Of a DNA stretch of 28,110 bases, positions 860-28,110 are shown one piece after another. The DNA lies in the UHGV virus genome UHGV-0095852. The stretch is one strand, 5' to 3'. The stretch comes from a virus. Each line of letters begins with the position of its first letter. Position 1 is the first letter of the stretch. The translations under genes and the position numbers were made by a program. The notes beneath the pieces were generated by a model. That model was not told the DNA's origin, made no database searches, and saw only the letters and a program-made list of their open reading frames with translations.

Positions 860-880
860 AAATTAGATTTCTAACATATT
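860..880 (+). promoter_or_regulatory. operator-like motif, copy 2 (AAATTAGATTTCTAACATATT)
   Basis: 20 of 21 identical to copy 3; abuts the stop codon of the 879-2099 gene. Confidence 0.4.
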
Positions 881-2112: not shown

Positions 2113-2133
2113 AAATTAGTTTTCTAACATATT
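2113..2133 (+). promoter_or_regulatory. operator-like motif, copy 3 (AAATTAGTTTTCTAACATATT)
   Basis: Sits 14-34 bp upstream of the start codon of the 879-2099 gene; contains TTAG-N4-CTAA dyad. Confidence 0.4.
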
Positions 2134-2171
2134 TTATTAGTATGAGGACAAGAGCGAAAGATGTGATAAAC

Positions 2172-2198
2172 AAAAAACCCGCTAATCGGCGGGTTTTT
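2172..2198 (-). terminator. rho-independent terminator (bidirectional), stem ACCCGC/GCGGGT, 6-nt loop, A-run and T-run flanks
   Basis: Hairpin 2177-2194 with T tract on the minus-strand reading; separates the small-ORF operon from the 406-aa gene. Confidence 0.6.
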
Positions 2199-2204
2199 GA
2201 GCGG

Positions 2205-2519
2205 TTATTGTGTCATTGCCTGGTAGATAAAATACACGATGCATACCGGTACGATAGCCCATTGCAGCAATGAAAGCAGCCTCATGGCTGTCATGGGAGT
2301 AACTCCGTCTACGTATTCCTTCTCTGACATTTTCCCTAACCAACTAACCGACAAAAGGGTCGAGTTCTCCCCCATTTCCAGCTCCCTGAGGGCTTCCCGG
2401 ATTAAAGGCGCTGTTACCACCTTGCGGGCAGTGTTGAGCGTAATGCTCCGCGTCCTCCCGGCGTCATCGGCAAACGCCAGGTTCACATGATATTTTTTGC
2501 TCAATGTACAAACTCCCAA
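2205..2519 (-). CDS. small hypothetical protein with hydrophobic C-terminal segment; true start may be internal (Met49 has an AGGGAG RBS)
   Basis: ORF begins at TTG; C-terminal LLSLLQWAIVPVCIVYFIY looks transmembrane; preferred over the antisense plus-strand ORF because the terminator is oriented for minus-strand transcripts. Confidence 0.3.
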   Translation of the reverse strand: MGVCTLSKKYHVNLAFADDAGRTRSITLNTARKVVTAPLIREALRELEMGENSTLLSVSWLGKMSEKEYVDGVTPMTAMRLLSLLQWAIVPVCIVYFIYQAMTQ

Positions 2520-2701
2520 TCATCAGCGCCTGTACTTTCCGGGGTAATGTGAACCTTATCACCAGTGACAATATTCCGAGCCTCTATTGTTCCATTGTTG
2601 TGTTTCAACAACTCAACACACAATGGTTGCTGCCAGGAACGACGGCGAGCAACAACGTTAGCACCAGCAGGGATAAGTTCAGCCACGTTAAGTAAACGCA
2701 A
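2501..2701 (-). CDS. small hypothetical protein, 66 aa
   Basis: TTG start preceded by GGAG at about 9 nt; lies directly downstream of the nuclease gene. Confidence 0.3.
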   Translation of the reverse strand: MRLLNVAELIPAGANVVARRRSWQQPLCVELLKHNNGTIEARNIVTGDKVHITPESTGADDWEFVH

Positions 2702-2715
2702 AACGATTTCTCCGT

Positions 2716-3207
2716 TTAATCAAGACAAACATATTCCGTGATAGCTTTTATGGCTTCAGCGGCACTGCGCGCCTCAAAGCAGTAGTAACCTGCTTCGGTG
2801 AGGCGAGTCATCCAGACGAGTTGTTCGGGAGTCAGGCGATTTCTCCCATGTTTCATCTCAATGCGCATTCCGTGGTATCCCCCACAAGCAAGGTCTATAG
2901 AAAGATCGGGATATCCCTTCTTTTGGCCCTCTGCCACCATTTTTATTGCCGTCCTTATGCCTCGCAGACCGCCGTTTGGAGTGGCGTGTGTATGCTCATA
3001 CACATAGCGCATATTGCGATACAACCAATCCAGGACGCGTACCTGCTCGTAATGCTCATGGTTCCTTTTGATTAGATCTGGGTTTTTCTCCAGTTCTCTG
3101 AGAGCTGCGGCATGTGGGGATGTTTCAGAATATTCACTGCGACGCCTTCTTTTTCTCGCTATTTTTCTAACACACCCATTGATAGTAAATAAGCGAAATA
3201 ATAACAA
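2716..3207 (-). CDS. VRR-NUC-like (PD-(D/E)xK) nuclease; start uncertain, probably downstream of 3207
   Basis: GYPDLSIDL ... IEMK motif pattern typical of VRR-NUC; operator-like motif copy 4 lies inside the N-terminal extension, so the real start is probably later. Confidence 0.55.
   Translation of the reverse strand: MLLFRLFTINGCVRKIARKRRRRSEYSETSPHAAALRELEKNPDLIKRNHEHYEQVRVLDWLYRNMRYVYEHTHATPNGGLRGIRTAIKMVAEGQKKGYPDLSIDLACGGYHGMRIEMKHGRNRLTPEQLVWMTRLTEAGYYCFEARSAAEAIKAITEYVCLD
3158..3175 (+). promoter_or_regulatory. operator-like motif, copy 4 (TATTTTTCTAACAC)
   Basis: Same core as copies 1-3; positioned in the presumptive 5' region of the nuclease gene. Confidence 0.3.
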
Positions 3208-3346
3208 CTGCGTTAGATTTGTAAAACAAGAGAGATACTACTCAAGGCTGGGCTATATGCAACAGGTCGGATTTGCTTTTAGAGTAAAAAGTGACCTTAA
3301 TCAACAAGGAGGGTAAATCGCATGGCATTTACCCAACTTGTTATTT

Positions 3347-3607
3347 TTAAAGGTTTATTTTATCCGGTTCGGATATTTCTGTGATTGTCTTGTCGATTGC
3401 GATCAACCACCCTTCATAGGTTAAATCATCAACAAGCTCTACCAGTTTGTCTTCTGTATGAGGGAAGTATACCCAGCTCCAGCTCGCTGGGTTTTCTGCT
3501 TTTCGCAGCGTAAAAACCTTCTTGTAACGGTGAAACTCAAGGACATACCCCTTCGATATGGAATATTCCTTTAGGTCTTCGACCGTAAACCTACGATTCT
3601 TTCGCAT
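3347..3607 (-). CDS. hypothetical protein, 86 aa
   Basis: ATG start 2 nt after the stop of the upstream gene; GGGG run 8 nt upstream. Confidence 0.5.
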   Translation of the reverse strand: MRKNRRFTVEDLKEYSISKGYVLEFHRYKKVFTLRKAENPASWSWVYFPHTEDKLVELVDDLTYEGWLIAIDKTITEISEPDKINL

Positions 3608-3609
3608 GG

Positions 3610-4044
3610 CTACCCCATGATTCGATATTTCTCTATTGACTCGTCGTAACTTGTGTACACGTATGGCTCTGTATCATCAGCATAAGGTGCGACTTCCAGA
3701 GCATGAACGGGATTGTATACCGCGTCATTTTCCAGGCGATCGCTCGAATACAGATGCCCAGCCAAAACCGTAAGCGCCGGGCGACTCATTTTGTAGATCT
3801 CTGCCACATCACTATCTACAACTTGTCCAAATGATATGTCGCCGCGCTCCAGCAATATCGTTTTGAGCGCGGGCCACCACGGACCATAAAGGTGATAAAG
3901 CTGTGGATTTTTCTTCAGTCTTTCTACCATGCCATCAAGATAAACTGTCAGGTATTCTTCTTCACTCCTGCCATTGAGTGCCTGCGGCAAGATTTCCTCA
4001 AGGTAGGATTCCGTCGGTTTTACAGTGTCAATTAGTGTCGTCAT
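3610..4044 (-). CDS. hypothetical protein, 144 aa, immediately downstream of the DarB-like gene
   Basis: ORF with ATG start; position corresponds to the gene co-transcribed with darB in P1 (ulx) by recollection of synteny only. Confidence 0.5.
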   Translation of the reverse strand: MTTLIDTVKPTESYLEEILPQALNGRSEEEYLTVYLDGMVERLKKNPQLYHLYGPWWPALKTILLERGDISFGQVVDSDVAEIYKMSRPALTVLAGHLYSSDRLENDAVYNPVHALEVAPYADDTEPYVYTSYDESIEKYRIMG

Positions 4045-4051
4045 TCAAATT

Positions 4052-4069
4052 CGGCCCCGGTTGGGGCCG
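4052..4069 (-). terminator. GC-rich stem-loop (CGGCCCC-GGTT-GGGGCCG) just after the darB-like stop; weak U-tract
   Basis: Perfect 7-bp stem read directly; follows stop codon at 4081. Confidence 0.35.
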
Positions 4070-4080
4070 CTCCTTATCTG

Positions 4081-7000
4081 TTAGGCCGCATCGGCGATTA
4101 TTTTACGCAGTTCATCTACCGAGTAACGAGTAGATACCATCCACGCCGGACGGTCAAAGTTCACATCAGCAACCGGGTTTGCTTCAAAATTCCAGAAACG
4201 CCCGCCAATCTTCTTAATCGCGTCTTTGGCGTTCCGTATTGTCGAGGAACCTGGCTGGTCGGCAATGAGATAAACCGCGCCAACGTCTTCGCTGACGCTC
4301 CACCAGCGCCCGCGAACACGCGCCTTAGCGCGAATCGGCTTATCATTAACCACAATGATATAGTCATCATTCGCCGCTTCATCAGCTCTGGCTTCAGCCA
4401 CTGCCGCCTGCTCTTCTCTTTTGCTTTCAGCCTGCTCAAGCCTTTCCGCGATCTCTGATTCAGTGGCCCCGCCGTTTTTCAGCGATACATAGTCCTGCCA
4501 CGTTGCCGATTTGAGCGCATCCGGCAACTCATTCACATAGTCGCCGTCTTTCAACTCACGGGCGCGACGGGTGGCCATTTCTACCAGGCGATTAACAGAA
4601 ACAGCATCAGCAAAATCGTCCTTACTAATGTGTTTTTCATCAAATGCATTGATGACAGCCCCCACCTTAATCCACTGCGCTGCTGGCGAATCCAGAGGAT
4701 TATCGGCCTGAACAATGGCTAATTTCGCTCCATCGACACCATTATTAGCCAGCTGCTCCAATGCCGACCAGCCATCGGCATCGCTGAGTGATTTATATTG
4801 CTCAAACAATGCATCGCGCCAGGCCACCAGCGCAGCTCGTGTTTTCTCAATTTTCGCCGTAATTTTCGCGGCCTTCACCTGATTAAACATCCGTTCAATG
4901 TCATCAGTGTTGCTAAAGGCTTTCATCCTGCCCTGGAATAAACGGTATGCCACCACGGTCTTCCAGAAAGATTCCAGCCCTTCTCCGGACGGTTTACGGA
5001 ACAGGCTAAGAATATCTTCAGAAGTAACTTTATTAAGTGAGCGACCGGACAAACCACGCCCTGCCATCCAGTTTTCAAACTCCTGGGAAACATCATCCAT
5101 CGTGGCCTGTGACCCCCATGCCTGCATTCCCTGGATGTAATCATATCCATACAATGCCTGGAGGAATCCCTCGCCGTCCACGACATTCAGCGGGTTATCA
5201 CTGGCTTGTATTTTTGCCACTTCACGCTTCAGCGCCTCGTCGTTGCCATCAGGATATATCCATCGCTCAGGTGCTATATCCGATGCTCGCCCGATTTTTT
5301 GGCCTATCACGCCATCATAGGTCGATGACAGCGCGATCTGACCATCATCTGTGCGATAAGCCCAGTATTTAATAGCTGAACCACCGCCCCATACTCTACC
5401 AGGCTTCCCGGCAGTGACATTCATTACCCCATTGCGAATAGCATCATAGAACTGATCGCGCGTAAGTGTTGTTGATAGCTGGTGGCATTGAACACCACGT
5501 GCAGCTGTTTCACGCGATTCTGCAACTCCCTCTTCAAAGGTTACCGATTCAATTATCAGGTTAAAGGGCAAAAATAATGCCGTCCCCGGAGAACGAGAGT
5601 AACGACTAGCCACATCCAGCCAGGATATGCGGCACGTACACCCGCCCCTTTCCGCATCAATGGCGGTAACACGAACAATTGCTGTCGTATTGTGATTCTC
5701 ATCGATGATCGCGCGATAATGGCTGCCCTTGTGCAACAAGATATTTTTCTCAGTGCGTACATACTCCTGTGGGTTCTGCAATACATCGGCATCAAGCTCC
5801 AGAACCCCGGCTTTAATCGCACGTTCCAGATCACCACGAGAACGTTTCATAACGGTGTCAGCGTCTTTAGCTCTGGTGATCGCAAAGCGTAGCTCCCGCA
5901 CACGTTTTCTGTAGTCTCGCAACTGTTCCAGAACATATTTCTGCCCGTTCCTGTTCGTCCCCGCTTTAATCAGGTCGTCAAGATTGCGCTGGTAATGCTC
6001 TACCTGCTCCATCGCGCTTTTCAGTTCTGTCTCCATCATGCCGATATCTTTCCCGGCAGCATTCGCCGCTTTCAGGTAGTTATCGAGAGCATTATTGGCT
6101 TCGCGTAGGGCTTTCAGTTTCAGACGTTCTTCACGCTCTTGCGCCTGACGACTCATGATTGCACGGCGTTCTTCCGGATTTGCCGCCAGCATAATGGCGC
6201 GTTCATCTGCGTCATCCGCATCACCATTGGCGATCTCTGACATGTCTGAGGTCATCACCATATTGATCCAGTCCTTCTTACGTTTCAGCGTATCCAGACG
6301 GAAGTCATCAAATGTGCCTTTGCCACAATAGTAGTGAACATTGACCTTTTCTTGTGGTGAGCCTACCCGAGCGCCGCGCCCATTACGTTGGTCGATACTG
6401 GCAGGAGTCCAGGGTAGTGTCAGATGGTGGATATCGGTTGTACCGATGTGCAAGTTAATACCTACTTCAGCCTTCTTGTTACAGATTATGATGCGCGTGC
6501 GACCTTCGTTATAGTCGGCGGCAATACCTTCCATGCCCTCAAGGCCAGCATCATTTTTAGCTGAGAGATAATCCTCATATTGGGCAAGTTTGCTGTAGTA
6601 GGTTTCCCATGCACCTTCTTTGTATTCACCGTTTTTATTTGGCGTAGGTTCAGTCGGCTTATTCACCTTCTTCAGCTTGACGCCGCCAGCCTGGCTAACT
6701 GTCGTCGCATTGATAATGCCTATCTCCTGCTCCGGCATTTGCAGTGCACTGGCAATAATACGGCGCAGCTTCTGGTGCTGGGCTTTTTCATCAATGAAGA
6801 CGATTTGTTTACCGTTCTTCAGACCTTCACGAAGGTTTTCGATCAGCGCGGCATACTTCGGCGGGATGGGGTGTGATACCTGCTGCATATCAATACCGGC
6901 AGCCGCAATGGCCTTCAGTATTTCAGCTTCCAGTTCAATGCCAGCACGTATTTCAACATGCGACGGATGTTCGCTAAAGGTGGTCTTCACTACCTTGCTG

Positions 7001-10000
7001 GTACGCGTACTGACCAGCCCACCAGCGCCATCTTCTTCGGCCTCGTCTGCATCATCTGCCACTTTACCGCCAGCTACTTTTGGCAGGGCATCAGCAATAG
7101 CTTTTACCTTGTCTGCAAGCTCAACGGGGAACTGGAATGTAATCGCACTGGCATACAGATCAGGATCTATAGCAACCTTATCCATGTCGCGGATGATGGA
7201 GAAGATGAAATCATCCGGTTTTTCGTTTGTGATATGCCCGTTTTCATCGACCGTCAGCGCATCTTTACTACTTAACTCCTGTGCACGCTTACGAAGTTCT
7301 TCGTAAATGGCCTCTTGCTCTCCTGTCATCGGGATCTGCAAGGTATTCTCGACAATATCAGGGATTTTTACCGTCGCCCCGACGTCCGCAGCAGTCTTCA
7401 GAGTAGTCCAGCGATGGAAAATACCACGCAGACCATCCAGGTTCTGGAAGCCCACCAGTCCCTGCTTCTCTTCCACCTCACCGGAAATTTTCTGAACCTG
7501 AACTGTGGCTGTTTTACCGAACACGCGAACGAAATCATCCGGCGTAACAATACCCATGCGCATCCACTCTTCCTGCGGAATGACAGTAGACAGCATGTTG
7601 AAAGCATCAATCGGGCTGTTCACCAGCGGTGTTGCCGTCAGCATAACCACACCACGCCCGTTGTTGCGTTTCATCATGTACGCAGCTTTTACAGCCATGT
7701 CGCGGGCCATTTTGGATACTGCCGGGTTAGGCAAATATGCCAGTTGCCCCGCTTCGCGCCCGGCGCTAAAGGAGTTGCGGTAGTTATGTCCTTCGTCGGC
7801 AATTACGCTATCGAAGTTCATATCCTCAAAGTACGGGATATTCTGCTTCTTCGTTGTACCGGTATTTGCGGCCTGGTCCTTAATCTTGTTCTTCTTCTGC
7901 GCGTCACGGTGTTTGCCAGATGCCAGGTCAAGACGCCCCATTTCCACAGCATTAAAGACCGCTTGCTGTGAGTTTTCCTCAATGGTTTCTTCTCGTAGCG
8001 GGATAGACGCGAATTGCTCTTTTGTCATGATGACCGTTCGCCAATTTGACGACGGGATCATGTTCATGCGCTGAACGATAACGGCGCTGGCGGACTCTTT
8101 CACAACATTTCGGGTAAGAGGCTGCCCGTTACTGTCGAGGCGTGGTTCGCCATTTTCATCAAGCACCGGCGCGGTCAGAATATTTCCGCTGTCATCACGA
8201 ACTTCATCCAGACCGATAAACATCATATTGGCGAAGGCATCAGCACTGTAGAAGCTCTGTGCCTCGTGATACCAGTTCTGATAAACCGCCTTCGGAACAA
8301 CAATACACGTGCGTTTAGTGCGACCTGTTTCGAAGTTATACGCCTCAAGCGCAAGCGCGGTCGTGGTTTTACCCAGCCCGGTACCAAATCCCATGATGCC
8401 GCGCCCATCTTCTGACAAGCGCCGAACTTCTTCATTCTGATAAGTCAGAGGAATGCGCTTCCCACTAATCCCCTCCAGGCCAAGCGGTGCGTCAGAATGC
8501 GTAAACGGGATGAAGCCATTAAATGCGTCGTTATAGTCGCGGGCTATCTGATCAGCCTGCGGGTGAGTGCGTAACCAGTCGTTGAAGCTAATTTCCAGTT
8601 GAGCAATCTTATCCAGGTACTCGTTAGCGTTCTGCCCACGCGGTTTAATGCCGTTCAGGTAGTTTTCTAACTGGTTCAGGAAGCCGTCTTTATTGTTGGC
8701 CTTCTTGAACTCATTCCCGTTTTTGCCGTTTACGGTTCGTAGTTGATAGCCAGTAAATACCCCGTCCTTACCTTCGTAATCGTCCGGAGATACCAGAATG
8801 CCGTCCTCAACCTTAAGGTCGGGTTCTGTATACTTAAACTCGTCATAGCCCTGCTCTGCCAGGAACTCTTTTATCAAGCGGCGATCCAGCCAGCGGGCGT
8901 TCAGATTAACGGTGACTTTATTTAGTGGCGTGAAAATGCGTTTCTCTTCGATTTTCGCCAACTGACGCTCAAAGTTCGCTTTCTGCTCACCTGTTGACGC
9001 ATCACGCCAGCCCACCAGCAATGCTGTTTTGGTTGCAATATCGCCGCTGGTGGCGCGGTCCATCGGCAGCAGGCAGCCATACCCATCAATAGCGATATCA
9101 TCAAATTTCGCCAGGTATTCCAGAGCAGCATCGTCGTCTCCTGGCAGTTCGCCAGCAAACGCCTCACGAAAATCGTCCAGTGTGATTGGATTAAGTGCCA
9201 CGTCACTGAAAAGGTGGGTTACAACTTGTTCCGGGCGTGTAAAGTCAATACCGGCAGCACCATCCGTTACATCAAGTCGTCCAGCAAGGAGGTCAGAAGC
9301 AGAGCCGTCCTGTTTCACGTTGCCAGTGAAAGTCATCCAGTTTTTAGCGCCAGCTTCAGCAATCCCATTCAGCTTAATCGCGTGCGGCGGACCATACTTC
9401 GCAATTTCGGCTTCCGCCAGGCGCGCGGCATCAGCAAGTTCATCATCAACATTTTCCCCCAGATTACGCTTATCAAGCGCCTTGTTGATCAACTGCCCTA
9501 TCAGTGCGCCGCGCATAACGCGTTCTCTGTCTTTTTCTCTCTGCTTGCCAGCAAAGCGAATCATTGCCGCTACTTCATCACTGATAACCGACGGATAGTC
9601 GGACGCGATCGCCGATATCTGGTCCCATGACAACGCCAGAATGCCATTTGTTGACTGAAACGCGATCTGCAGATCACCAAACGTCGTAACACCATATCGA
9701 TTTACATCAAGAGCGGAGGATTTGGTTGTCGCGTCCTTGACCCATTTCAGGCCATCAAACTCATGCCAGATGCCGCCTACAAGGCGTTTATCGCCCACTT
9801 TCGCGCCCTGCCATGCCTGAGTAGTTACGCCAAGCAAATCCCAATTAATGCGGCTTTCAAAGCGGCGCGATAGAGCGGTTTTCATCGACTCATTGGATAC
9901 ACGACCGTCCTTTTTCACCACCAGGGTATTGCGGAAGCTGGTACGCTCCATATCGCCGTAAACAAATCGCTTCCCTTCGGTTGTAAACCATTTCCCTTTG

Positions 10001-10920
10001 AGGAAGGTATCCCAAAGGACGTTTGCCGACTTGAGCGTTGCATCATCCGTGTCGGGGATCATCTCCAGGAAGGTTTCCGGGTGTTTACGCAATACCCATA
10101 CGTCCACCACTGTATCTGTACCGGATTCGCTGAACGTACCAGAAGGCATACGATGTGCGCCCAAAAATTCCGCTTTACGGCTGACTTTATCGCGCAATTT
10201 TTTGTATTTCGTACCATCGGTCATGCCATTCGGCACCACCAATACAATTAGTCCACCAGGCTTAACCTTGTCGATCGTGCGCAGCACAAAGTAATTGCCA
10301 ACGTTCTTCTCGTTTGCATATGCCGGATCAAGCCCGGCAACGCCGGAACGCCCTTCACCAAACGGTACGTTACCAACAGCGTGGTCATACATTGCGTCTT
10401 TCGCCGCCAGCGCCTCAAACGCCCCGATATTCACATCGTCTTCCGGGTGCAAAAGCTGGTTTATTCGACCGGAAATCGGAGATAGTTCGGCGCTGGTCAT
10501 TATCATGCCCTGCCGTTTTGTCTCCTGGAAAATACCTGTGCCCGCTGATGGTTCCAGTACGTGCCCGCCATCAATACCGTAGTCAGCAAACAGATCCCAT
10601 ATACCTTCAGCCATAAACTGTGGTGTGTAGTATTCGTATTGGCTGCCCTCACCATCTGTCAGGCCGCCTTCACCGGTATACCCGGCAAGAATCTGACGTT
10701 GTTCGTCAGTTAATTTCGCCCCATCGAAGCCGGGCGGAAGGGAATTAAGAAGCTCTACTGCGGCGTTGTTTGCTGCCCGCCGTGTTTTTTGAATGCTGAC
10801 ACCATCGACTTTCTTAACGCCAAAGGTCGCAACAGCACGTAATTTATGCAACCGACTAACAATTTCAATCAGTTCGCCTAAGCTGGAGGCTTCACTGATT
10901 GAATGAAGTAGTTTATCCAA
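4081..10920 (-). CDS. darB: DarB-like antirestriction protein: N-terminal N6-adenine methyltransferase domain fused to SF2 helicase
   Basis: 2279-aa ORF; MTase motif I LEPSAGTGIF and motif IV GNVPFG; Walker A GFGTGLGKTT; DEGH box VIADEGH; helicase motif VI QRNGRGARVG; GAGGGGG RBS. Confidence 0.9.
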   Translation of the reverse strand: MDKLLHSISEASSLGELIEIVSRLHKLRAVATFGVKKVDGVSIQKTRRAANNAAVELLNSLPPGFDGAKLTDEQRQILAGYTGEGGLTDGEGSQYEYYTPQFMAEGIWDLFADYGIDGGHVLEPSAGTGIFQETKRQGMIMTSAELSPISGRINQLLHPEDDVNIGAFEALAAKDAMYDHAVGNVPFGEGRSGVAGLDPAYANEKNVGNYFVLRTIDKVKPGGLIVLVVPNGMTDGTKYKKLRDKVSRKAEFLGAHRMPSGTFSESGTDTVVDVWVLRKHPETFLEMIPDTDDATLKSANVLWDTFLKGKWFTTEGKRFVYGDMERTSFRNTLVVKKDGRVSNESMKTALSRRFESRINWDLLGVTTQAWQGAKVGDKRLVGGIWHEFDGLKWVKDATTKSSALDVNRYGVTTFGDLQIAFQSTNGILALSWDQISAIASDYPSVISDEVAAMIRFAGKQREKDRERVMRGALIGQLINKALDKRNLGENVDDELADAARLAEAEIAKYGPPHAIKLNGIAEAGAKNWMTFTGNVKQDGSASDLLAGRLDVTDGAAGIDFTRPEQVVTHLFSDVALNPITLDDFREAFAGELPGDDDAALEYLAKFDDIAIDGYGCLLPMDRATSGDIATKTALLVGWRDASTGEQKANFERQLAKIEEKRIFTPLNKVTVNLNARWLDRRLIKEFLAEQGYDEFKYTEPDLKVEDGILVSPDDYEGKDGVFTGYQLRTVNGKNGNEFKKANNKDGFLNQLENYLNGIKPRGQNANEYLDKIAQLEISFNDWLRTHPQADQIARDYNDAFNGFIPFTHSDAPLGLEGISGKRIPLTYQNEEVRRLSEDGRGIMGFGTGLGKTTTALALEAYNFETGRTKRTCIVVPKAVYQNWYHEAQSFYSADAFANMMFIGLDEVRDDSGNILTAPVLDENGEPRLDSNGQPLTRNVVKESASAVIVQRMNMIPSSNWRTVIMTKEQFASIPLREETIEENSQQAVFNAVEMGRLDLASGKHRDAQKKNKIKDQAANTGTTKKQNIPYFEDMNFDSVIADEGHNYRNSFSAGREAGQLAYLPNPAVSKMARDMAVKAAYMMKRNNGRGVVMLTATPLVNSPIDAFNMLSTVIPQEEWMRMGIVTPDDFVRVFGKTATVQVQKISGEVEEKQGLVGFQNLDGLRGIFHRWTTLKTAADVGATVKIPDIVENTLQIPMTGEQEAIYEELRKRAQELSSKDALTVDENGHITNEKPDDFIFSIIRDMDKVAIDPDLYASAITFQFPVELADKVKAIADALPKVAGGKVADDADEAEEDGAGGLVSTRTSKVVKTTFSEHPSHVEIRAGIELEAEILKAIAAAGIDMQQVSHPIPPKYAALIENLREGLKNGKQIVFIDEKAQHQKLRRIIASALQMPEQEIGIINATTVSQAGGVKLKKVNKPTEPTPNKNGEYKEGAWETYYSKLAQYEDYLSAKNDAGLEGMEGIAADYNEGRTRIIICNKKAEVGINLHIGTTDIHHLTLPWTPASIDQRNGRGARVGSPQEKVNVHYYCGKGTFDDFRLDTLKRKKDWINMVMTSDMSEIANGDADDADERAIMLAANPEERRAIMSRQAQEREERLKLKALREANNALDNYLKAANAAGKDIGMMETELKSAMEQVEHYQRNLDDLIKAGTNRNGQKYVLEQLRDYRKRVRELRFAITRAKDADTVMKRSRGDLERAIKAGVLELDADVLQNPQEYVRTEKNILLHKGSHYRAIIDENHNTTAIVRVTAIDAERGGCTCRISWLDVASRYSRSPGTALFLPFNLIIESVTFEEGVAESRETAARGVQCHQLSTTLTRDQFYDAIRNGVMNVTAGKPGRVWGGGSAIKYWAYRTDDGQIALSSTYDGVIGQKIGRASDIAPERWIYPDGNDEALKREVAKIQASDNPLNVVDGEGFLQALYGYDYIQGMQAWGSQATMDDVSQEFENWMAGRGLSGRSLNKVTSEDILSLFRKPSGEGLESFWKTVVAYRLFQGRMKAFSNTDDIERMFNQVKAAKITAKIEKTRAALVAWRDALFEQYKSLSDADGWSALEQLANNGVDGAKLAIVQADNPLDSPAAQWIKVGAVINAFDEKHISKDDFADAVSVNRLVEMATRRARELKDGDYVNELPDALKSATWQDYVSLKNGGATESEIAERLEQAESKREEQAAVAEARADEAANDDYIIVVNDKPIRAKARVRGRWWSVSEDVGAVYLIADQPGSSTIRNAKDAIKKIGGRFWNFEANPVADVNFDRPAWMVSTRYSVDELRKIIADAA

Positions 10921-12717: not shown

Positions 12718-13046
12718 AGTTACGGCCTCACTAACAGGTTTAACAACCTGCTACCCGCTGTCAAACAGGTGGCAGGACGTGACAGGGTTGACAGACTGGC
12801 GTTAGTGAAACCAGCAGGCCTAAGCCTCCCCATCACGCCCCACCATAATTCGGGCGTAACGCGGTTTACGGACACAAAAATACCGCAATATCGGAAATCT
12901 GCGGTTGTCCGCACTAACATTCAGGCTGTCAAACCTGGTCGCAGAATTTGCTACGACGGCATGAATATAAGCCTGAAAACATGGAAGATCAACTAAAAAT
13001 TTCAGCAATGGATGACTTCAGTCGATGATGCAGATCATACATTCCG

Positions 13047-14261: not shown

Positions 14262-14283
14262 ACTATGTTAGAAATTTAACTTC
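14262..14283 (-). promoter_or_regulatory. operator-like motif, copy 6 (minus-strand reading GAAGTTAAATTTCTAACATAGT), overlapping palindrome AGTGTAT-ATAA-ATACACT
   Basis: Same TTTCTAACA core in the opposite orientation; intergenic. Confidence 0.35.
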
Positions 14284-24985: not shown

Positions 24986-25270
24986 ATGCTTATTGGATAC
25001 ATTCGCATTTCAACAAATGACCAAAACACCGCTTTGCAACGCCCCCCTTGAAAGCGCAGGATGTGAGCTAATTTTTGAGGGCAAAGCGAGTGGCAAAAAG
25101 GCTGAACGCCAAGGGTTAAAAAAGGTTCTGCGTATGTTTTCCAGAGATGAAGCCTTGGTCGTATAGCAGTTAGAGCGGCTTGAGGGCAATTTAGTTGTGC
25201 TGCTGTAATCGCTGCGTGCCAGATGAATAAACCTTCTGAATCCCACTAATTCTATCGACATCTGTACACC
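24986..25270 (+). pseudogene. degenerate serine invertase (Hin/Gin/Cin family) remnant
   Basis: Starts MLIGYIRISTNDQNTALQR then shifts frame at a C-run; a second frame continues with CELIFEGK ... VV; W codon replaced by TAG at 25164-25166; later SIDICTPMQR matches SIDTSTPMGR of the intact invertase. Confidence 0.6.
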
Positions 25271-25418
25271 AATGCAGCGCTCACGATGCAATTAAGATCA
25301 ACATTACAGGGATGGTTTTCATTAGTGGTCGGTCCGACACAAGATGCATCGAATTGATGCGCCGCGCGATAAGTGTATCTATTCCCTCGAGATAAACTAC
25401 ATCGACGCGGCATTTGTA

Positions 25419-25991
25419 TTACAACTCAGTTTGAGTTTGGCGCTTCTCTACAGGGTGATAACGATAAATCGTCGATACACCGATATCGTAAATAATTGCC
25501 AACTGTTTCCTGCTGTAGCCATTTTCGATCAACCTCGCTATTTGCTCATGTTGTTCTTTTGTCAACTTCGGGCGACGTCCGCCAATGCGTCCCTGTTCGC
25601 GTGCAGCTGCCAGTCCAGCCAGGGTTCTCTCAACAATTAATTCACGTTCCATTTCTGCTAAAGCCCCCATGACGTGAAAAAAGAAACGCCCCATGGGTGT
25701 TGAGGTGTCAATGCTGTCTGTCAGACTACGGAAATTAACACCTTTTTCCCGCAGCTCCTCAATAAGCGTGATCAGGTGTTTCATACTTCTGCCAAGCCTG
25801 TCCAGCTTCCAGACAACCAGCGTATCTCCTTCTGATAACGTTCTGAGCAGCTTTTTCAATCCTGGTCTGGCTGACTTTGTTCCGCTGATTTTATCTTCAA
25901 AAATTAGTTCACATCCTGCGCAGTTCAGTGCATTTCTTTGTAAATCTGTGTTTTGGTCATTTGTTGACACACGAATGTAGCCAATTTGCAT
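25419..25991 (-). CDS. serine DNA invertase, Hin/Gin/Cin/Pin/Min family
   Basis: MQIGYIRVSTNDQNTDLQRNAL resolvase N-terminal domain with catalytic Ser, C-terminal HTH; start set at ATG 25991 (GAGG 9 nt upstream) rather than 26000. Confidence 0.92.
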   Translation of the reverse strand: MQIGYIRVSTNDQNTDLQRNALNCAGCELIFEDKISGTKSARPGLKKLLRTLSEGDTLVVWKLDRLGRSMKHLITLIEELREKGVNFRSLTDSIDTSTPMGRFFFHVMGALAEMERELIVERTLAGLAAAREQGRIGGRRPKLTKEQHEQIARLIENGYSRKQLAIIYDIGVSTIYRYHPVEKRQTQTEL

Positions 25992-26045
25992 GAAAAACAT
26001 CCTCTTTGTTTAGTTAAAAATACATAGTTGGTATAGGTAGGGATT

Positions 26046-26071
26046 AAGACTAAAACGTTGGTTTGGGGGAA
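26046..26071 (+). other. 26-bp recombination crossover-type site 1 (minus-strand reading TTCCCCCAAACC AA CGTTTTAGTCTT)
   Basis: Half-site ending in AAACC, 2-bp core, degenerate right half; 55 bp from the invertase start. Confidence 0.55.
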
Positions 26072-26491
26072 GGCTCGGCGCTGCCCGTTGGTGTGCCTGT
26101 TCCGTGGCCCTCAGCCACGCCGCCAACGGGGTGGCTGAAATGTAACGGAGCAGCATTTTCTTCTGAAAAGTACCCAAATCTGGCAAAGGTTTACCCCACT
26201 AATAAATTGCCGGATTTACGGGGAGAATTTATTCGCGGTTGGGATGATGGGCGCGGGATTGATGCGGGACGTACCCTGCTTTCAGGGCAGGATGGTACAA
26301 GTTTTTCTCATTACGGAGGTAATTTCGACATTGGGTCTGGTCATTCAATCAATAACTATGACCAAATTGTTTCTAACCAACCAGGATTTTCCCGTTTTTC
26401 ATTTGCAGGGCCTTCACGAGGTGATGGGGTTAATTATGTAACCATTCGTCCTCGTAACATTGCGTTTAATTATATCGTAAGGGCGGCATGA
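26063..26491 (+). CDS. tail fibre C-terminal variable cassette 1 (promoterless gene segment)
   Basis: Conserved start GEGSALPVGVPVPWPSATPPTGWLKCNG, unique middle, conserved end RPRNIAFNYIVRAA; no ATG or RBS of its own. Confidence 0.7.
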   Translation: MGEGSALPVGVPVPWPSATPPTGWLKCNGAAFSSEKYPNLAKVYPTNKLPDLRGEFIRGWDDGRGIDAGRTLLSGQDGTSFSHYGGNFDIGSGHSINNYDQIVSNQPGFSRFSFAGPSRGDGVNYVTIRPRNIAFNYIVRAA

Positions 26492-26510
26492 AAACGTTGG
26501 TTTAGGGGAA
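26485..26510 (+). other. 26-bp recombination crossover-type site 2 (minus-strand reading TTCCCCTAAACC AA CGTTTTCATGCC)
   Basis: Same structure as site 1, at the junction between cassette 1 and cassette 2. Confidence 0.55.
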
Positions 26511-26930
26511 GGCTCTGCATTGCCCGTTGGTGTACCTGTTCCGTGGCCCTCAGCCACACCGCCAACGGGGTGGCTGAAATGTAACGGAGCAGCATTTTCT
26601 TCTGAAAAATACCCAAATCTGGCAAAGGTTTACCCCACTAATAAATTGCCGGATCTACGGGGCGAATTTATTCGAGGTTGGGATGATGGACGAGGTGTGG
26701 ACAATGGGCGAGCATTATTAAGCAGCCAAGAGGCTACAAACTTTTCTCAGCGTGCCGGAAATATAGGCGATGGTGCGGGGCACGCAATTAATTTTCATGA
26801 TGGCATCGTCGGAAATCAGCCAGGATTTTCACGATTTAATTTCACCAGTAACTCTGTAGGTGATGGTATAAATTTTGTTGCTGTCAGGCCGCGAAATATC
26901 GCATTTAATTACATCGTAAGGGCGGCATAA
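26499..26930 (+). CDS. tail fibre C-terminal variable cassette 2 (promoterless gene segment)
   Basis: Frame open from the crossover site (GRHENVGLGEGSALPVG ...); same conserved ends as cassette 1, different central part. Confidence 0.7.
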   Translation, partial: GLGEGSALPVGVPVPWPSATPPTGWLKCNGAAFSSEKYPNLAKVYPTNKLPDLRGEFIRGWDDGRGVDNGRALLSSQEATNFSQRAGNIGDGAGHAINFHDGIVGNQPGFSRFNFTSNSVGDGINFVAVRPRNIAFNYIVRAA

Positions 26931-26949
26931 AAACGTTGGTTTAGGAGAA
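26924..26949 (+). other. 26-bp recombination crossover-type site 3 (minus-strand reading TTCTCCTAAACC AA CGTTTTTATGCC)
   Basis: Same structure as sites 1 and 2, at the junction between cassette 2 and cassette 3. Confidence 0.55.
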
Positions 26950-27399
26950 GGCTCGGCGCTGCCCGTTGGTGTACCTGTTCCATGGCCCTCAGCCACACCT
27001 CCAACGGGGTGGCTGAAATGCAATGGTGCAGCATTTTCTTCTGAAAAGTACCCAAATCTGGCAAAGGTTTATCCCACCAATAAATTACCGGATTTACGCG
27101 GTGAGTTTATCCGTGGTTGGGATGATGGGCGAGGTGTGGATGCGGGAAGGGTCATCTTAAGCATACAGGGGTGGTTAACAGGAAGTCATTATCATAATAT
27201 TCGGTCATGGGACGCGTGGGATAACACGGTATTGGTGCCAAATGACAGAGGGGGGGATAGTCTGTTGTCGACAGATAACGCCGTCCAAGAAGGAGCGATT
27301 AATGGTAAATTTACCAGTCAATACAGAACGGAGTTATCTGGGGGGAATGAAACCCGCCCACGTAACATTGCCTTCAATTATATTGTGAGAGCAGCATAA
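26938..27399 (+). CDS. tail fibre C-terminal variable cassette 3 (promoterless gene segment), followed by a tail fibre assembly gene
   Basis: Frame open from site 3 through the stop at 27399; the ORF track shows only the part after the first GTG (27136). Confidence 0.7.
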   Translation, partial: GLGEGSALPVGVPVPWPSATPPTGWLKCNGAAFSSEKYPNLAKVYPTNKLPDLRGEFIRGWDDGRGVDAGRVILSIQGWLTGSHYHNIRSWDAWDNTVLVPNDRGGDSLLSTDNAVQEGAINGKFTSQYRTELSGGNETRPRNIAFNYIVRAA

Positions 27400-28010
27400 T
27401 GGATAATGCGATATTAAATAGCGAACTTATAGCCATACAGGCAGGAAACATTATCGTTTATAACTATGATGGTGGTAATCGGGAATATATTTCTGCATCA
27501 ACTGAATATCTTGCTGTTGGCGTTGGTATTCCGGCAAATTCTTGTTTGGATGCTCCAGGCTCACATAAAGCAGGTTATGCGATTCTCCGTTCAGAGGATT
27601 TAAGTTCATGGGAGTATGTGCCAGATCATCGTGGCGAAACTGTCTATAGCATTGACACTGGGAATCCCGAAGAAATCACGGTGTTGGGTGACTATCCGGA
27701 AAATACAACCACTATCGCCCCGCTAACACCATACGACAAATGGGATGGAGAGAAATGGGTGGTTGATACTGAGGCTCAACATAGTGCAGCTGTAGATGCA
27801 GCAGAAACAAAACGTCAGTCATTGATTGATACTGCGATGGATTCCATTAGTCTGATTCAGTTGAAATTACGGGCTGGACGGAAGTTGACGCAGGCAGAAA
27901 CCACGCAGCTTAACTCCGTGCTAGATTATATAGACGAGCTGAACGCGATGGATTTAACCACGGCACCAGATCTCAACTGGCCTGAAAAACAACTTTCTAC
28001 AGCCAGTTGA
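27399..28010 (+). CDS. tail fibre assembly protein (chaperone)
   Basis: Start overlaps the cassette 3 stop (TAATG); C-terminal TTAPDLNWPEK matches the conserved tail fibre assembly C-terminal motif. Confidence 0.8.
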   Translation: MDNAILNSELIAIQAGNIIVYNYDGGNREYISASTEYLAVGVGIPANSCLDAPGSHKAGYAILRSEDLSSWEYVPDHRGETVYSIDTGNPEEITVLGDYPENTTTIAPLTPYDKWDGEKWVVDTEAQHSAAVDAAETKRQSLIDTAMDSISLIQLKLRAGRKLTQAETTQLNSVLDYIDELNAMDLTTAPDLNWPEKQLSTAS

Positions 28011-28015
28011 TATAA

Positions 28016-28110
28016 TTAATCCGCCCTCACAATATAATTAAATGCAATATTACGAGGGCGGGTTTCTAAGCCAGCAGTACCTAAATTAGCTACGGACTGT
28101 TTATATGTTT
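28016..28110 (-). CDS. 3' end of a tail fibre gene or cassette (partial, 5' end beyond the window)
   Basis: Minus-strand frame open to the window edge and ending GLETRPRNIAFNYIVRAD-stop, the same C-terminal signature as cassettes 1-3. Confidence 0.6.
   Translation of the reverse strand, partial: TYKQSVANLGTAGLETRPRNIAFNYIVRAD
28021..28063. terminator. palindrome CCGCCCTC ... GAGGGCGG between the convergent assembly gene and minus-strand fibre segment; possible bidirectional terminator
   Basis: 8-bp perfect arms read directly; followed by GTTTCT on the plus side. Confidence 0.35.

Follow-up and report, generated by a model that had tools for sequence, protein, structure and literature searches.

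The DNA analysed here is a stretch of 28,110 nucleotides (nt) of the virus genome UHGV-0095852, hereafter called the window. Judging by its sequence, it belongs to a D6-like, P1-family phage-plasmid of E. coli. Five open reading frames (ORFs) occupy positions 2205–4044 on the minus strand, between a 2,279-amino-acid (aa) DarB-like gene (4081–10920) and a 406-aa homologue of pmgS (879–2099). The five ORFs listed for this interval in an initial annotation were all found, with the same coordinates and sizes, and all are conserved. We regard the interval, with a probability of about 0.8, as a conserved D6-type structural and regulatory block made up of two transcription units. Its genes, three of which use a TTG start codon, are as follows:

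3610–4044, minus strand: ulx homologue, 144 aa, ATG start
3347–3607, minus strand: putative Lxc/Bof-like gene (orf86), 86 aa, ATG start
2716–3207, minus strand: PmgM-type VRR-NUC nuclease, maximal ORF of 163 aa from a TTG codon
2501–2701, minus strand: orf66, 66 aa, TTG start with a GGAG Shine-Dalgarno (SD) sequence
2205–2519, minus strand: PmgR homologue, 104 aa from the first TTG, or 99 aa from the TTG at 2504 (2205–2504)

Conservation of the block and its carrier

The interval shares 91.5% nucleotide identity with Escherichia phage D6 and is 100% identical to the E. coli plasmid pSOI121-1 (NZ_AP035758.1, about 90 kb), and NZ_CP122510.1 is identical to the query except for the query's first 3 bases. 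Among plasmid records of E. coli, Salmonella and Shigella, 118 matched, and in 110 the match covered 80% or more of the region. The region is also carried by 99 of 5,426 complete E. coli genomes and is plasmid-borne in every case. In a search of Rfam, a C4 antisense RNA scored 68 bits and the a1/b1 sites that it targets scored 54 bits, at 12765–12850 and 12918–12970 on the minus strand; this is a P1-type immI immunity region. Based on the identity to D6 and to the plasmids, and on D6/P1 hallmarks such as the C4 RNA, the source was placed among the D6-like members of the P1 family of phage-plasmids.

Each of the five proteins matched a PHROG family (E about 1e-41 to 1e-59), and the ratio of nonsynonymous to synonymous substitution rates (dN/dS, Nei-Gojobori method; five to seven relatives, 75–97% identical) was 0.03–0.37 across the five genes. 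All five ORFs, including the small ones on whose conservation the initial annotation depended, are real genes under purifying selection. None of the five proteins had a match in NCBIfam, the only PADLOC match among the block proteins was a weak sub-threshold one on Ulx, and tRNA and Rfam scans found nothing within the block. The locus L012 (pSa1423-90k) was excluded from every analysis because it is full of indels.

The same five genes, with the same order, spacing, terminator and motifs, are present as orf10–orf14 in D6 (GenBank MF356679/NC_050154), in whose record orf13, which corresponds to the Lxc-like gene, and orf11, which corresponds to orf66, are given as hypothetical proteins and no operator is marked. 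Gene order and content are constant in D6 and in 110 of the 118 matching plasmids, and in 97 of the 99 matching E. coli genomes, 80% or more of the block is found at a single location. The distant loci L035–L037 likewise have the order darB-ulx-lxc-like-pmgM-small gene-pmgR-pmgS, and protein identity in the distant elements with this gene order is 45–59%. Among the D6-like phage-plasmids of E. coli, Salmonella and Shigella, the differences from the window are confined to alleles and reflect mosaic recombination. In L011 (NZ_AP027678.1), ulx and pmgR are nearly identical to those of the window (synonymous divergence, dS, 0–0.01), whereas the orf86-nuclease-orf66 segment is a different allele (dS 1.1–1.3), that of L007, with breakpoints near gene boundaries. 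This mosaic of dS values indicates recombination between lineages and not gene gain or loss. The block is therefore not the variable accessory region that the initial annotation had proposed; only its alleles vary, by recombination.

It is P1 that has the rearranged genome relative to the D6-type order. The groups darB-ulx-lxc and pmgL-pmgM...pmgR-pmgS, contiguous in the window, lie 68 kb apart in P1. Five P1 genes (pmgN-O-P-ppp-pmgQ) separate pmgM from pmgR where the window has orf66. Unlike P1, the window has no pmgL and carries a terminator between pmgR and pmgS.

Identity of the five genes

The 144-aa gene next to darB, which had been suggested to correspond to ulx by its position, is by sequence a Ulx homologue. 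It begins 36 nt past the darB stop codon, and its product shares 48% identity with P1 Ulx across 138 of its 144 aa (E 4e-45) and matches phrog_1629 (E 5e-59); its dN/dS is 0.06–0.14, and D6 orf14 is annotated as "similar to P1 ulx". Ulx of P1 is a virion head protein aiding the incorporation of DarB (PMC9024508, PMC10695390), and by analogy the homologue may likewise be located in the head and assist DarB packaging. The junction of the two genes contains the following element:

4052–4075, minus strand: darB-ulx junction hairpin, with the SD sequence AAGGAG at 4075–4070 and a 7-bp GC hairpin at 4069–4052, followed by 7 nt and the ulx ATG

It folds at −17.7 kcal/mol (z −3.7). The same SD-hairpin-ATG layout was found before ulx in L006 (3906–3930; stem GGCCTC/GAGGCC) and in P1 (L003:1637–1669; stem CGCCCGG/CCGGGCG). 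The layout is kept with different stem sequences, that is, with compensatory changes, which points to an RNA-processing signal or a structured ribosome-binding site that may be "split".

The 86-aa protein probably belongs to the Lxc/Bof family as a strongly divergent member. P1 Lxc (Bof) has 82 aa, and its gene occupies the same slot directly 3′ of ulx. BLASTP of the 86-aa protein against P1 Lxc or PmgL gave no match, and a word-indexed search returned only D6-like copies. When 1.8 billion representative proteins were searched exhaustively with the family profile, 16 family members (cluster representatives) were found. The three distant members that were looked up all lie directly after darB-ulx, their upstream neighbours being a DarB-like gene of 2,280–2,300 aa and a Ulx homologue of 144–149 aa with 49–59% identity to that of the window. 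The order darB-ulx-X in the window, in P1 and beside these three members represents a conserved cassette in which, in P1, X is lxc.

Profile comparisons agree with this placement to differing degrees. A profile of the close family of orf86 gave P 0.17 against P1 Lxc, while hhalign with the wide family profile gave P=7.8e-5 over 65 collinear columns, and 2 of 20,000 shuffles reached the score of P1 Lxc with the hidden Markov model (HMM) of the wide profile. With an HMM built from the 12 distant members only, orf86 scored 65.5 bits and P1 Lxc 19.3 bits, the latter a value reached by none of 20,000 shuffles (maximum 16.4). The profile match of P1 Lxc to the family is full-length and collinear, yet there is no BLAST-level pairwise similarity, and at 19 bits the link is statistically modest, which weighs against the assignment. 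The dN/dS of orf86 is 0.10–0.17. An AlphaFold model of the protein (predicted local distance difference test score, pLDDT, 76) had no fold match in the PDB, and a family search with P1 Lxc found only near-identical or frameshifted copies. PmgL was also considered as a homologue and was rejected (0.1 and −0.8 bits). Of the earlier proposal of an lxc counterpart, the position is confirmed by comparison with the P1 lxc-ulx-darB region, in which the order darB-ulx-X is the same, and the probable homology to Lxc is remote. Lxc/Bof is a modulator or co-repressor of C1 in P1, and orf86 may play a similar role by analogy. A hairpin follows the gene:

3303–3342, minus strand: long hairpin after orf86, −18 kcal/mol, z −5.7

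Its inner stem, GGGTAAAT/ATTTACCC, is conserved with wobble-compatible changes only, and a T-run comes after it in L006. It is probably a partial terminator or an RNA-processing site ending the darB-ulx-lxc unit.

The nuclease is, by sequence, a stand-alone PmgM-type VRR-NUC protein, which agrees with the prediction made earlier from its GYPDL...IEMK motif. The search with the Pfam family VRR_NUC (PF08774) gave 26.1 bits (E 9.3e-6; residues 45–149), which exceeds the gathering cut-off of 23.8. The protein also matched the VRR-NUC structure PDB 4qbl (E 1.2e-13), with the catalytic motifs aligned, and is 57% identical to P1 PmgM over 136 aa. GYPDL corresponds to residues 98–102 and IEMK to residues 116–119 of the 163-aa ORF, with TPEQ129 further on; the catalytic D101, E117 and K119, as well as Q129, are invariant across P1, D6-like and distant homologues. 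The dN/dS of the core is 0.03–0.07.

A VRR-NUC subfamily is named after PmgM (PMC9635880), and three stand-alone VRR-NUC proteins are dimeric Holliday-junction resolvases (PMC4103454). The window nuclease has in common with such stand-alone enzymes the domain, the GYPD...IExK...Q signature and the single-domain size; unlike them, it carries an extra arginine-rich N-terminal segment (KIARKRRRR). It is about 30–45 aa shorter than P1 PmgM, lacking its first ~10–25 and last ~20 residues. In P1, pmgM is non-essential (PMC10695390). The nuclease frame is broken after codon 85 in L019 and after codon 122 in L022 (both IMG/VR contigs; codons counted from the ATA at 3162), L022 being also cut by the end of its locus. 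These look like natural frameshifted alleles, which would fit a dispensable gene and weaken any claim that the nuclease is important.

The product of orf66 matched phrog_7206 (E 8e-41), and the dN/dS of the gene is 0.15–0.37. Homologues were found only as D6-like copies. The model is a small beta-barrel (pLDDT 80), whose best fold match in BFVD is a DUF2829 protein, a weak one (E 8.5e-3, template modelling score 0.37). Genes in the same slot in L035 (5428–5991) and L037 (5809–6051) carry PF11195 (30.7 and 19.8 bits), the DUF2829/Tad2 family of anti-Thoeris sponges (bioRxiv 10.1101/2023.05.01.538930), and the RRxxW and A-x-DWE motifs can be recognised by eye in orf66. On the other side, orf66 had no Pfam match at E up to 10 (PF11195 included), hhalign against the PF11195-bearing neighbours was not significant, and comparison with the PDB by sequence and fold gave nothing significant and no Tad2 among the fold matches; membership in Tad2 is for these reasons not established. 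It is possible that orf66 is a minimal DUF2829/Tad2-like domain, which we offer as a lead and not as an assignment. An anti-Thoeris-type protein may be a regular occupant of the pmgM-pmgR slot in distant P1-like elements.

The last gene codes for a PmgR homologue, 31% identical to P1 PmgR over 64 aa (E 4e-5 against a database of 12 proteins), with which it has the motif WLGKM(S/T)E in common. It matched phrog_9115 (E 3e-54) over residues 6–104 of the 104-aa ORF; D6 orf10 is annotated as similar to pmgR, and the gene lies directly upstream of the pmgS homologue. The best start is the TTG at 2504 (99 aa), with an SD energy of −6.8 kcal/mol against −2.9 for the TTG at 2519; it overlaps the orf66 stop codon (TTGA). 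The C-terminal tail (2205–2300) differs entirely in sequence among lineages and is hydrophobic in all of them, with a Kyte-Doolittle 19-residue maximum of 2.05 at residues 76–94. This predicted hydrophobic helix, present in the D6-type protein and absent from P1 PmgR, is probably membrane-spanning. PmgR of P1 functions in completing the head or in joining heads to tails, and the homologue may do so by analogy. The gene is followed by a terminator:

2171–2198, minus strand: intrinsic terminator, 10-bp stem then TTTTTTG, −14 kcal/mol

It is conserved in all relatives and closes the nuclease-orf66-pmgR operon, as had been noted before. The neighbour beyond it is a PmgS homologue with 20% identity to P1 PmgS. 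For this gene, the ATG at 2087 (SD GGGAA, −4.2 kcal/mol) is a likelier start than the ATG at 2099, which has no SD sequence, and the 402-aa PGAP call agrees with ATG 2087.

Two other readings of the block as a whole were weighed. It could be a variable, moron-like island between core genes, as the mosaic alleles (dS from 0 to above 1 within one pair, the case of L011), the divergent pmgR tail and the two small genes without homologues beyond the D6-like group would allow. We consider this very unlikely in view of the constant gene content and order described above, also in L035–L037, and of the P1 counterparts of four of the five genes, among them pmgR, which is essential in P1 (PMC9024508). 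Still more improbable is that the nuclease and orf66 form a toxin-immunity or defence/counter-defence pair. VRR-Nuc domains do act as toxins of the type VI secretion system beside immunity genes (PMC9635880), the two genes lie side by side and were swapped together with orf86 in L011, and the block adjoins the Dar anti-restriction genes. However, the PmgM subfamily is separated from the toxin clade and tied to DNA-metabolism neighbourhoods (PMC9635880), the nuclease has no secretion or PAAR domain, and neither it nor orf66 matched PADLOC. In P1, 24 of 29 pmg/upf knockouts had no plaquing or anti-restriction phenotype (PMC9024508), and the non-essential pmgM and the natural frameshifts of the nuclease also speak against a toxin. 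The conserved D6-type block remains the preferred reading.

Putative operators and promoters, and the start of the nuclease gene

An operator-like motif had been noticed inside the annotated N-terminus of the nuclease. Its core, TGTTAGAAA, and the neighbouring signals are located as follows, promoter names P1 and P2 being distinct from phage P1:

3164–3172, minus strand: putative operator core TGTTAGAAA, inside the annotated nuclease N-terminus
2115–2141, minus strand: second putative operator copy ACTAATAAAATATGTTAGAAAACTAAT, before the pmgS homologue
712–720 and 868–876, minus strand: further TGTTAGAAA copies, which lie immediately downstream of the pmgS homologue and are followed by no obvious ORF
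14266–14274, plus strand: further TGTTAGAAA copy between the protease (pro) homologue and a repL-like gene
3198–3225, minus strand: candidate sigma-70 promoter P1, TTTACA-16 nt-TGtTATTAT (extended −10)
3235–3262, minus strand: candidate sigma-70 promoter P2, TTGCAT-16 nt-TAGTAT
3159–3179, minus strand: six-codon upstream ORF (uORF), ATG GGT GTG TTA GAA AAA TAG, read from the sequence

The motif is present in 5 copies in the window against 0.27 expected and in 12 copies in D6 against 0.64 expected, and the copies at 3164–3172 and 2115–2141 are invariant in 75%-identical relatives. The D6 sites lie upstream of c1, ref (two copies), hrdC and icd/immI and at pmgM, pmgS, ppp/pdcB and cre; apart from the copy inside the annotated nuclease ORF, all are intergenic. 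In P1, this is the set of genes under C1 control. In the P1 record, C1 operators are placed before pmgL-pmgM, ppp, pmgR-pmgS and pmgT, so that pmgM and pmgS are preceded by C1 operators in P1 as by C1-type sites in the window, although the operator sequence differs. When the D6 motif is aligned as well as possible to the P1 operator, 10 of 17 positions agree, and the two have a TnTTAGA core in common. We think it likely that TGTTAGAAA is a D6-type C1 operator, which may double as an extended −10 element.

Two observations weigh against this assignment: the P1 operator consensus ATTGCTCTAATAAATTT has 0 matches in the window at up to 3 mismatches, and TGTTAGAAA resembles an extended −10 element. 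Because the P1 consensus is absent, the assignment draws on the distribution of the motif and its partial resemblance to the P1 operator. That TGTTAGAAA is simply the extended −10 (TGnTAGAAA) of a promoter class, or the site of another regulator, seems unlikely. It fits TGnTAnAAn and stands 19–33 nt upstream of the start codon at c1 and pmgS, a promoter-like spacing. On the other hand, 12 repeats of an exact 9-mer that has a non-consensus G and ends in A would be expected of a protein-binding site more than of −10 boxes. The copies also lie beside early and lysogeny genes (c1, ref, hrdC, immI) and not beside most structural operons, one of the copies in the window lies between two minus-strand genes but on the opposite strand, and the TnTTAGA core is common with the P1 operator. 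The two readings are compatible, since P1 operators overlap promoters. Promoter P1 matches the hexamers at 10 of 12 positions and has the TG extension, its −10 overlaps the TTG at 3207, and its TTGTTATTA block is conserved across lineages. For promoter P2, the scan tool gave no report; in the alignment, all four lineages keep both hexamers, with a spacer sequence that varies. The P1 late-promoter-like box AAATGACTA-N4-TANNNT occurs no more often than by chance, so no late promoter can be assigned.

The initial annotation had called several starts in this region ambiguous or non-ATG. This holds for the three TTG genes and above all for the nuclease, to which public annotations of near-identical sequence give a length of 492, 495, 474, 297 or 225 nt. 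Coding is secure from about 3162 (148 aa). The 98-aa and 74-aa annotations can be rejected: they ignore clear purifying selection upstream, and they are wrong because they would delete the conserved first helix, alpha-1 (EHYEQ; E51, H52 and Q55 invariant). Just after the operator, an A-run has five residues in 17 sequences (A5), four in 3 (A4) and six in 2 (A6), while the 148 codons from the ATA at 3162 are identical in all full-length copies of these alleles. In A6, the ATG at 3179 is in the nuclease frame; in A5, the same ATG opens the six-codon uORF, whose TAG stop overlaps the nuclease-frame ATA codon (3162–3160); A4 has no canonical nuclease start at all. The operator, the promoter-like site and the A4/A5/A6 polymorphism at the N-terminus make the annotated TTG start doubtful. 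As a candidate promoter and a putative repressor site lie inside the called ORF, the five annotated lengths are probably wrong at the 5′ end.

We tentatively place the nuclease start at or near the operator (about 3162–3179), at a little under even odds. What weighs against this placement is that none of the candidate starts has a good ribosome-binding site. The annotated TTG at 3207 is possible but also falls short of an even chance; with it, the product would have 163 aa, the motif would be coding sequence (C-V-R-K), and transcripts would come from promoter P2, which would include this TTG in the mRNA, or from read-through of darB. In the A5 allele, this TTG is the sole canonical in-frame start upstream of the core. 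It was the choice of both PGAP and the D6 authors, the operator-core distance is constant in all lineages without indels, and in L006 and L013 the ORF starts upstream of the motif. Yet the TTG has no SD sequence (+1.5 kcal/mol) and sits within the strong extended −10 of promoter P1. In L007 and L011, an in-frame TGA lies downstream of the equivalent TTG, and TTG-ATG stands where the window has ATA-GCG. Moreover, A4 and A6 break the TTG frame while the downstream 148 codons stay identical, and the first 25 codons have dN/dS 0.08–0.6, highest against divergent lineages, compared with 0.03–0.07 in the core.

It is improbable, though worth setting out, that the A5 allele has no usable canonical start and makes the nuclease at a low level through the six-codon uORF over the C1 operator. 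Translation might terminate at the uORF and reinitiate at the overlapping ATA (sequence ATAG), or tRNA-Lys might slip by −1 on A-AAA-A beside the TAG stop; the product of this slip would be the protein that A6 encodes directly (MGVLEKIARK...). If true, the A4/A5/A6 tract would be an evolutionary or phase-like dial on the amount of a potentially harmful nuclease.

Proposed organisation and meaning

Based on the above, we suggest the following organisation. The first unit would be the tail of the darB anti-restriction operon, containing ulx and the 86-aa Lxc/Bof-like gene and ending at the long hairpin; the 86-aa protein would, by analogy with P1, help the C1 repressor to hold its operators. The second unit would consist of the nuclease, orf66 and pmgR, served by one or more sigma-70-type promoters of its own and by a D6-type C1 operator. 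With these signals, it should be silent in the plasmid prophage and switched on when C1 is inactivated. The nuclease would most likely act as a dimer cutting Holliday junctions or other branched DNA, making replicated and recombined phage DNA packageable. The strong intrinsic terminator would end this unit, and a further operator copy would govern pmgS.

Outside the block, the window contains a 54-nt inverted repeat (24986–25039 and 25938–25991) resembling the 5′ ends of two invertase genes, and, at 25980–28066, three 300-nt direct repeats at 439-nt spacing together with further inverted repeats. The repeats at 24986–28066 probably represent a Cin-type invertible tail-fibre segment with several alternative cassettes.

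The block is ordinary, having been already sequenced and largely annotated in D6-like phage-plasmids. It is a standard part of an annotated phage family carried by about 2% of complete E. coli genomes, and it matters little overall. What the analysis adds is the probable assignment to the Lxc family, a map of the putative operators and the likely misplacement of the annotated nuclease start, in a gene to which annotation pipelines assign five different lengths. For the "hypothetical" 86-aa gene, a role as the D6-type Lxc/Bof co-repressor can be proposed; that it stays linked to darB-ulx far beyond P1 prompts one to ask why a repressor modulator should accompany an anti-restriction cassette. 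With the 9-bp motif, the likely C1 regulon can readily be mapped in D6-like phage-plasmids, a group that serves as a vehicle of resistance genes.

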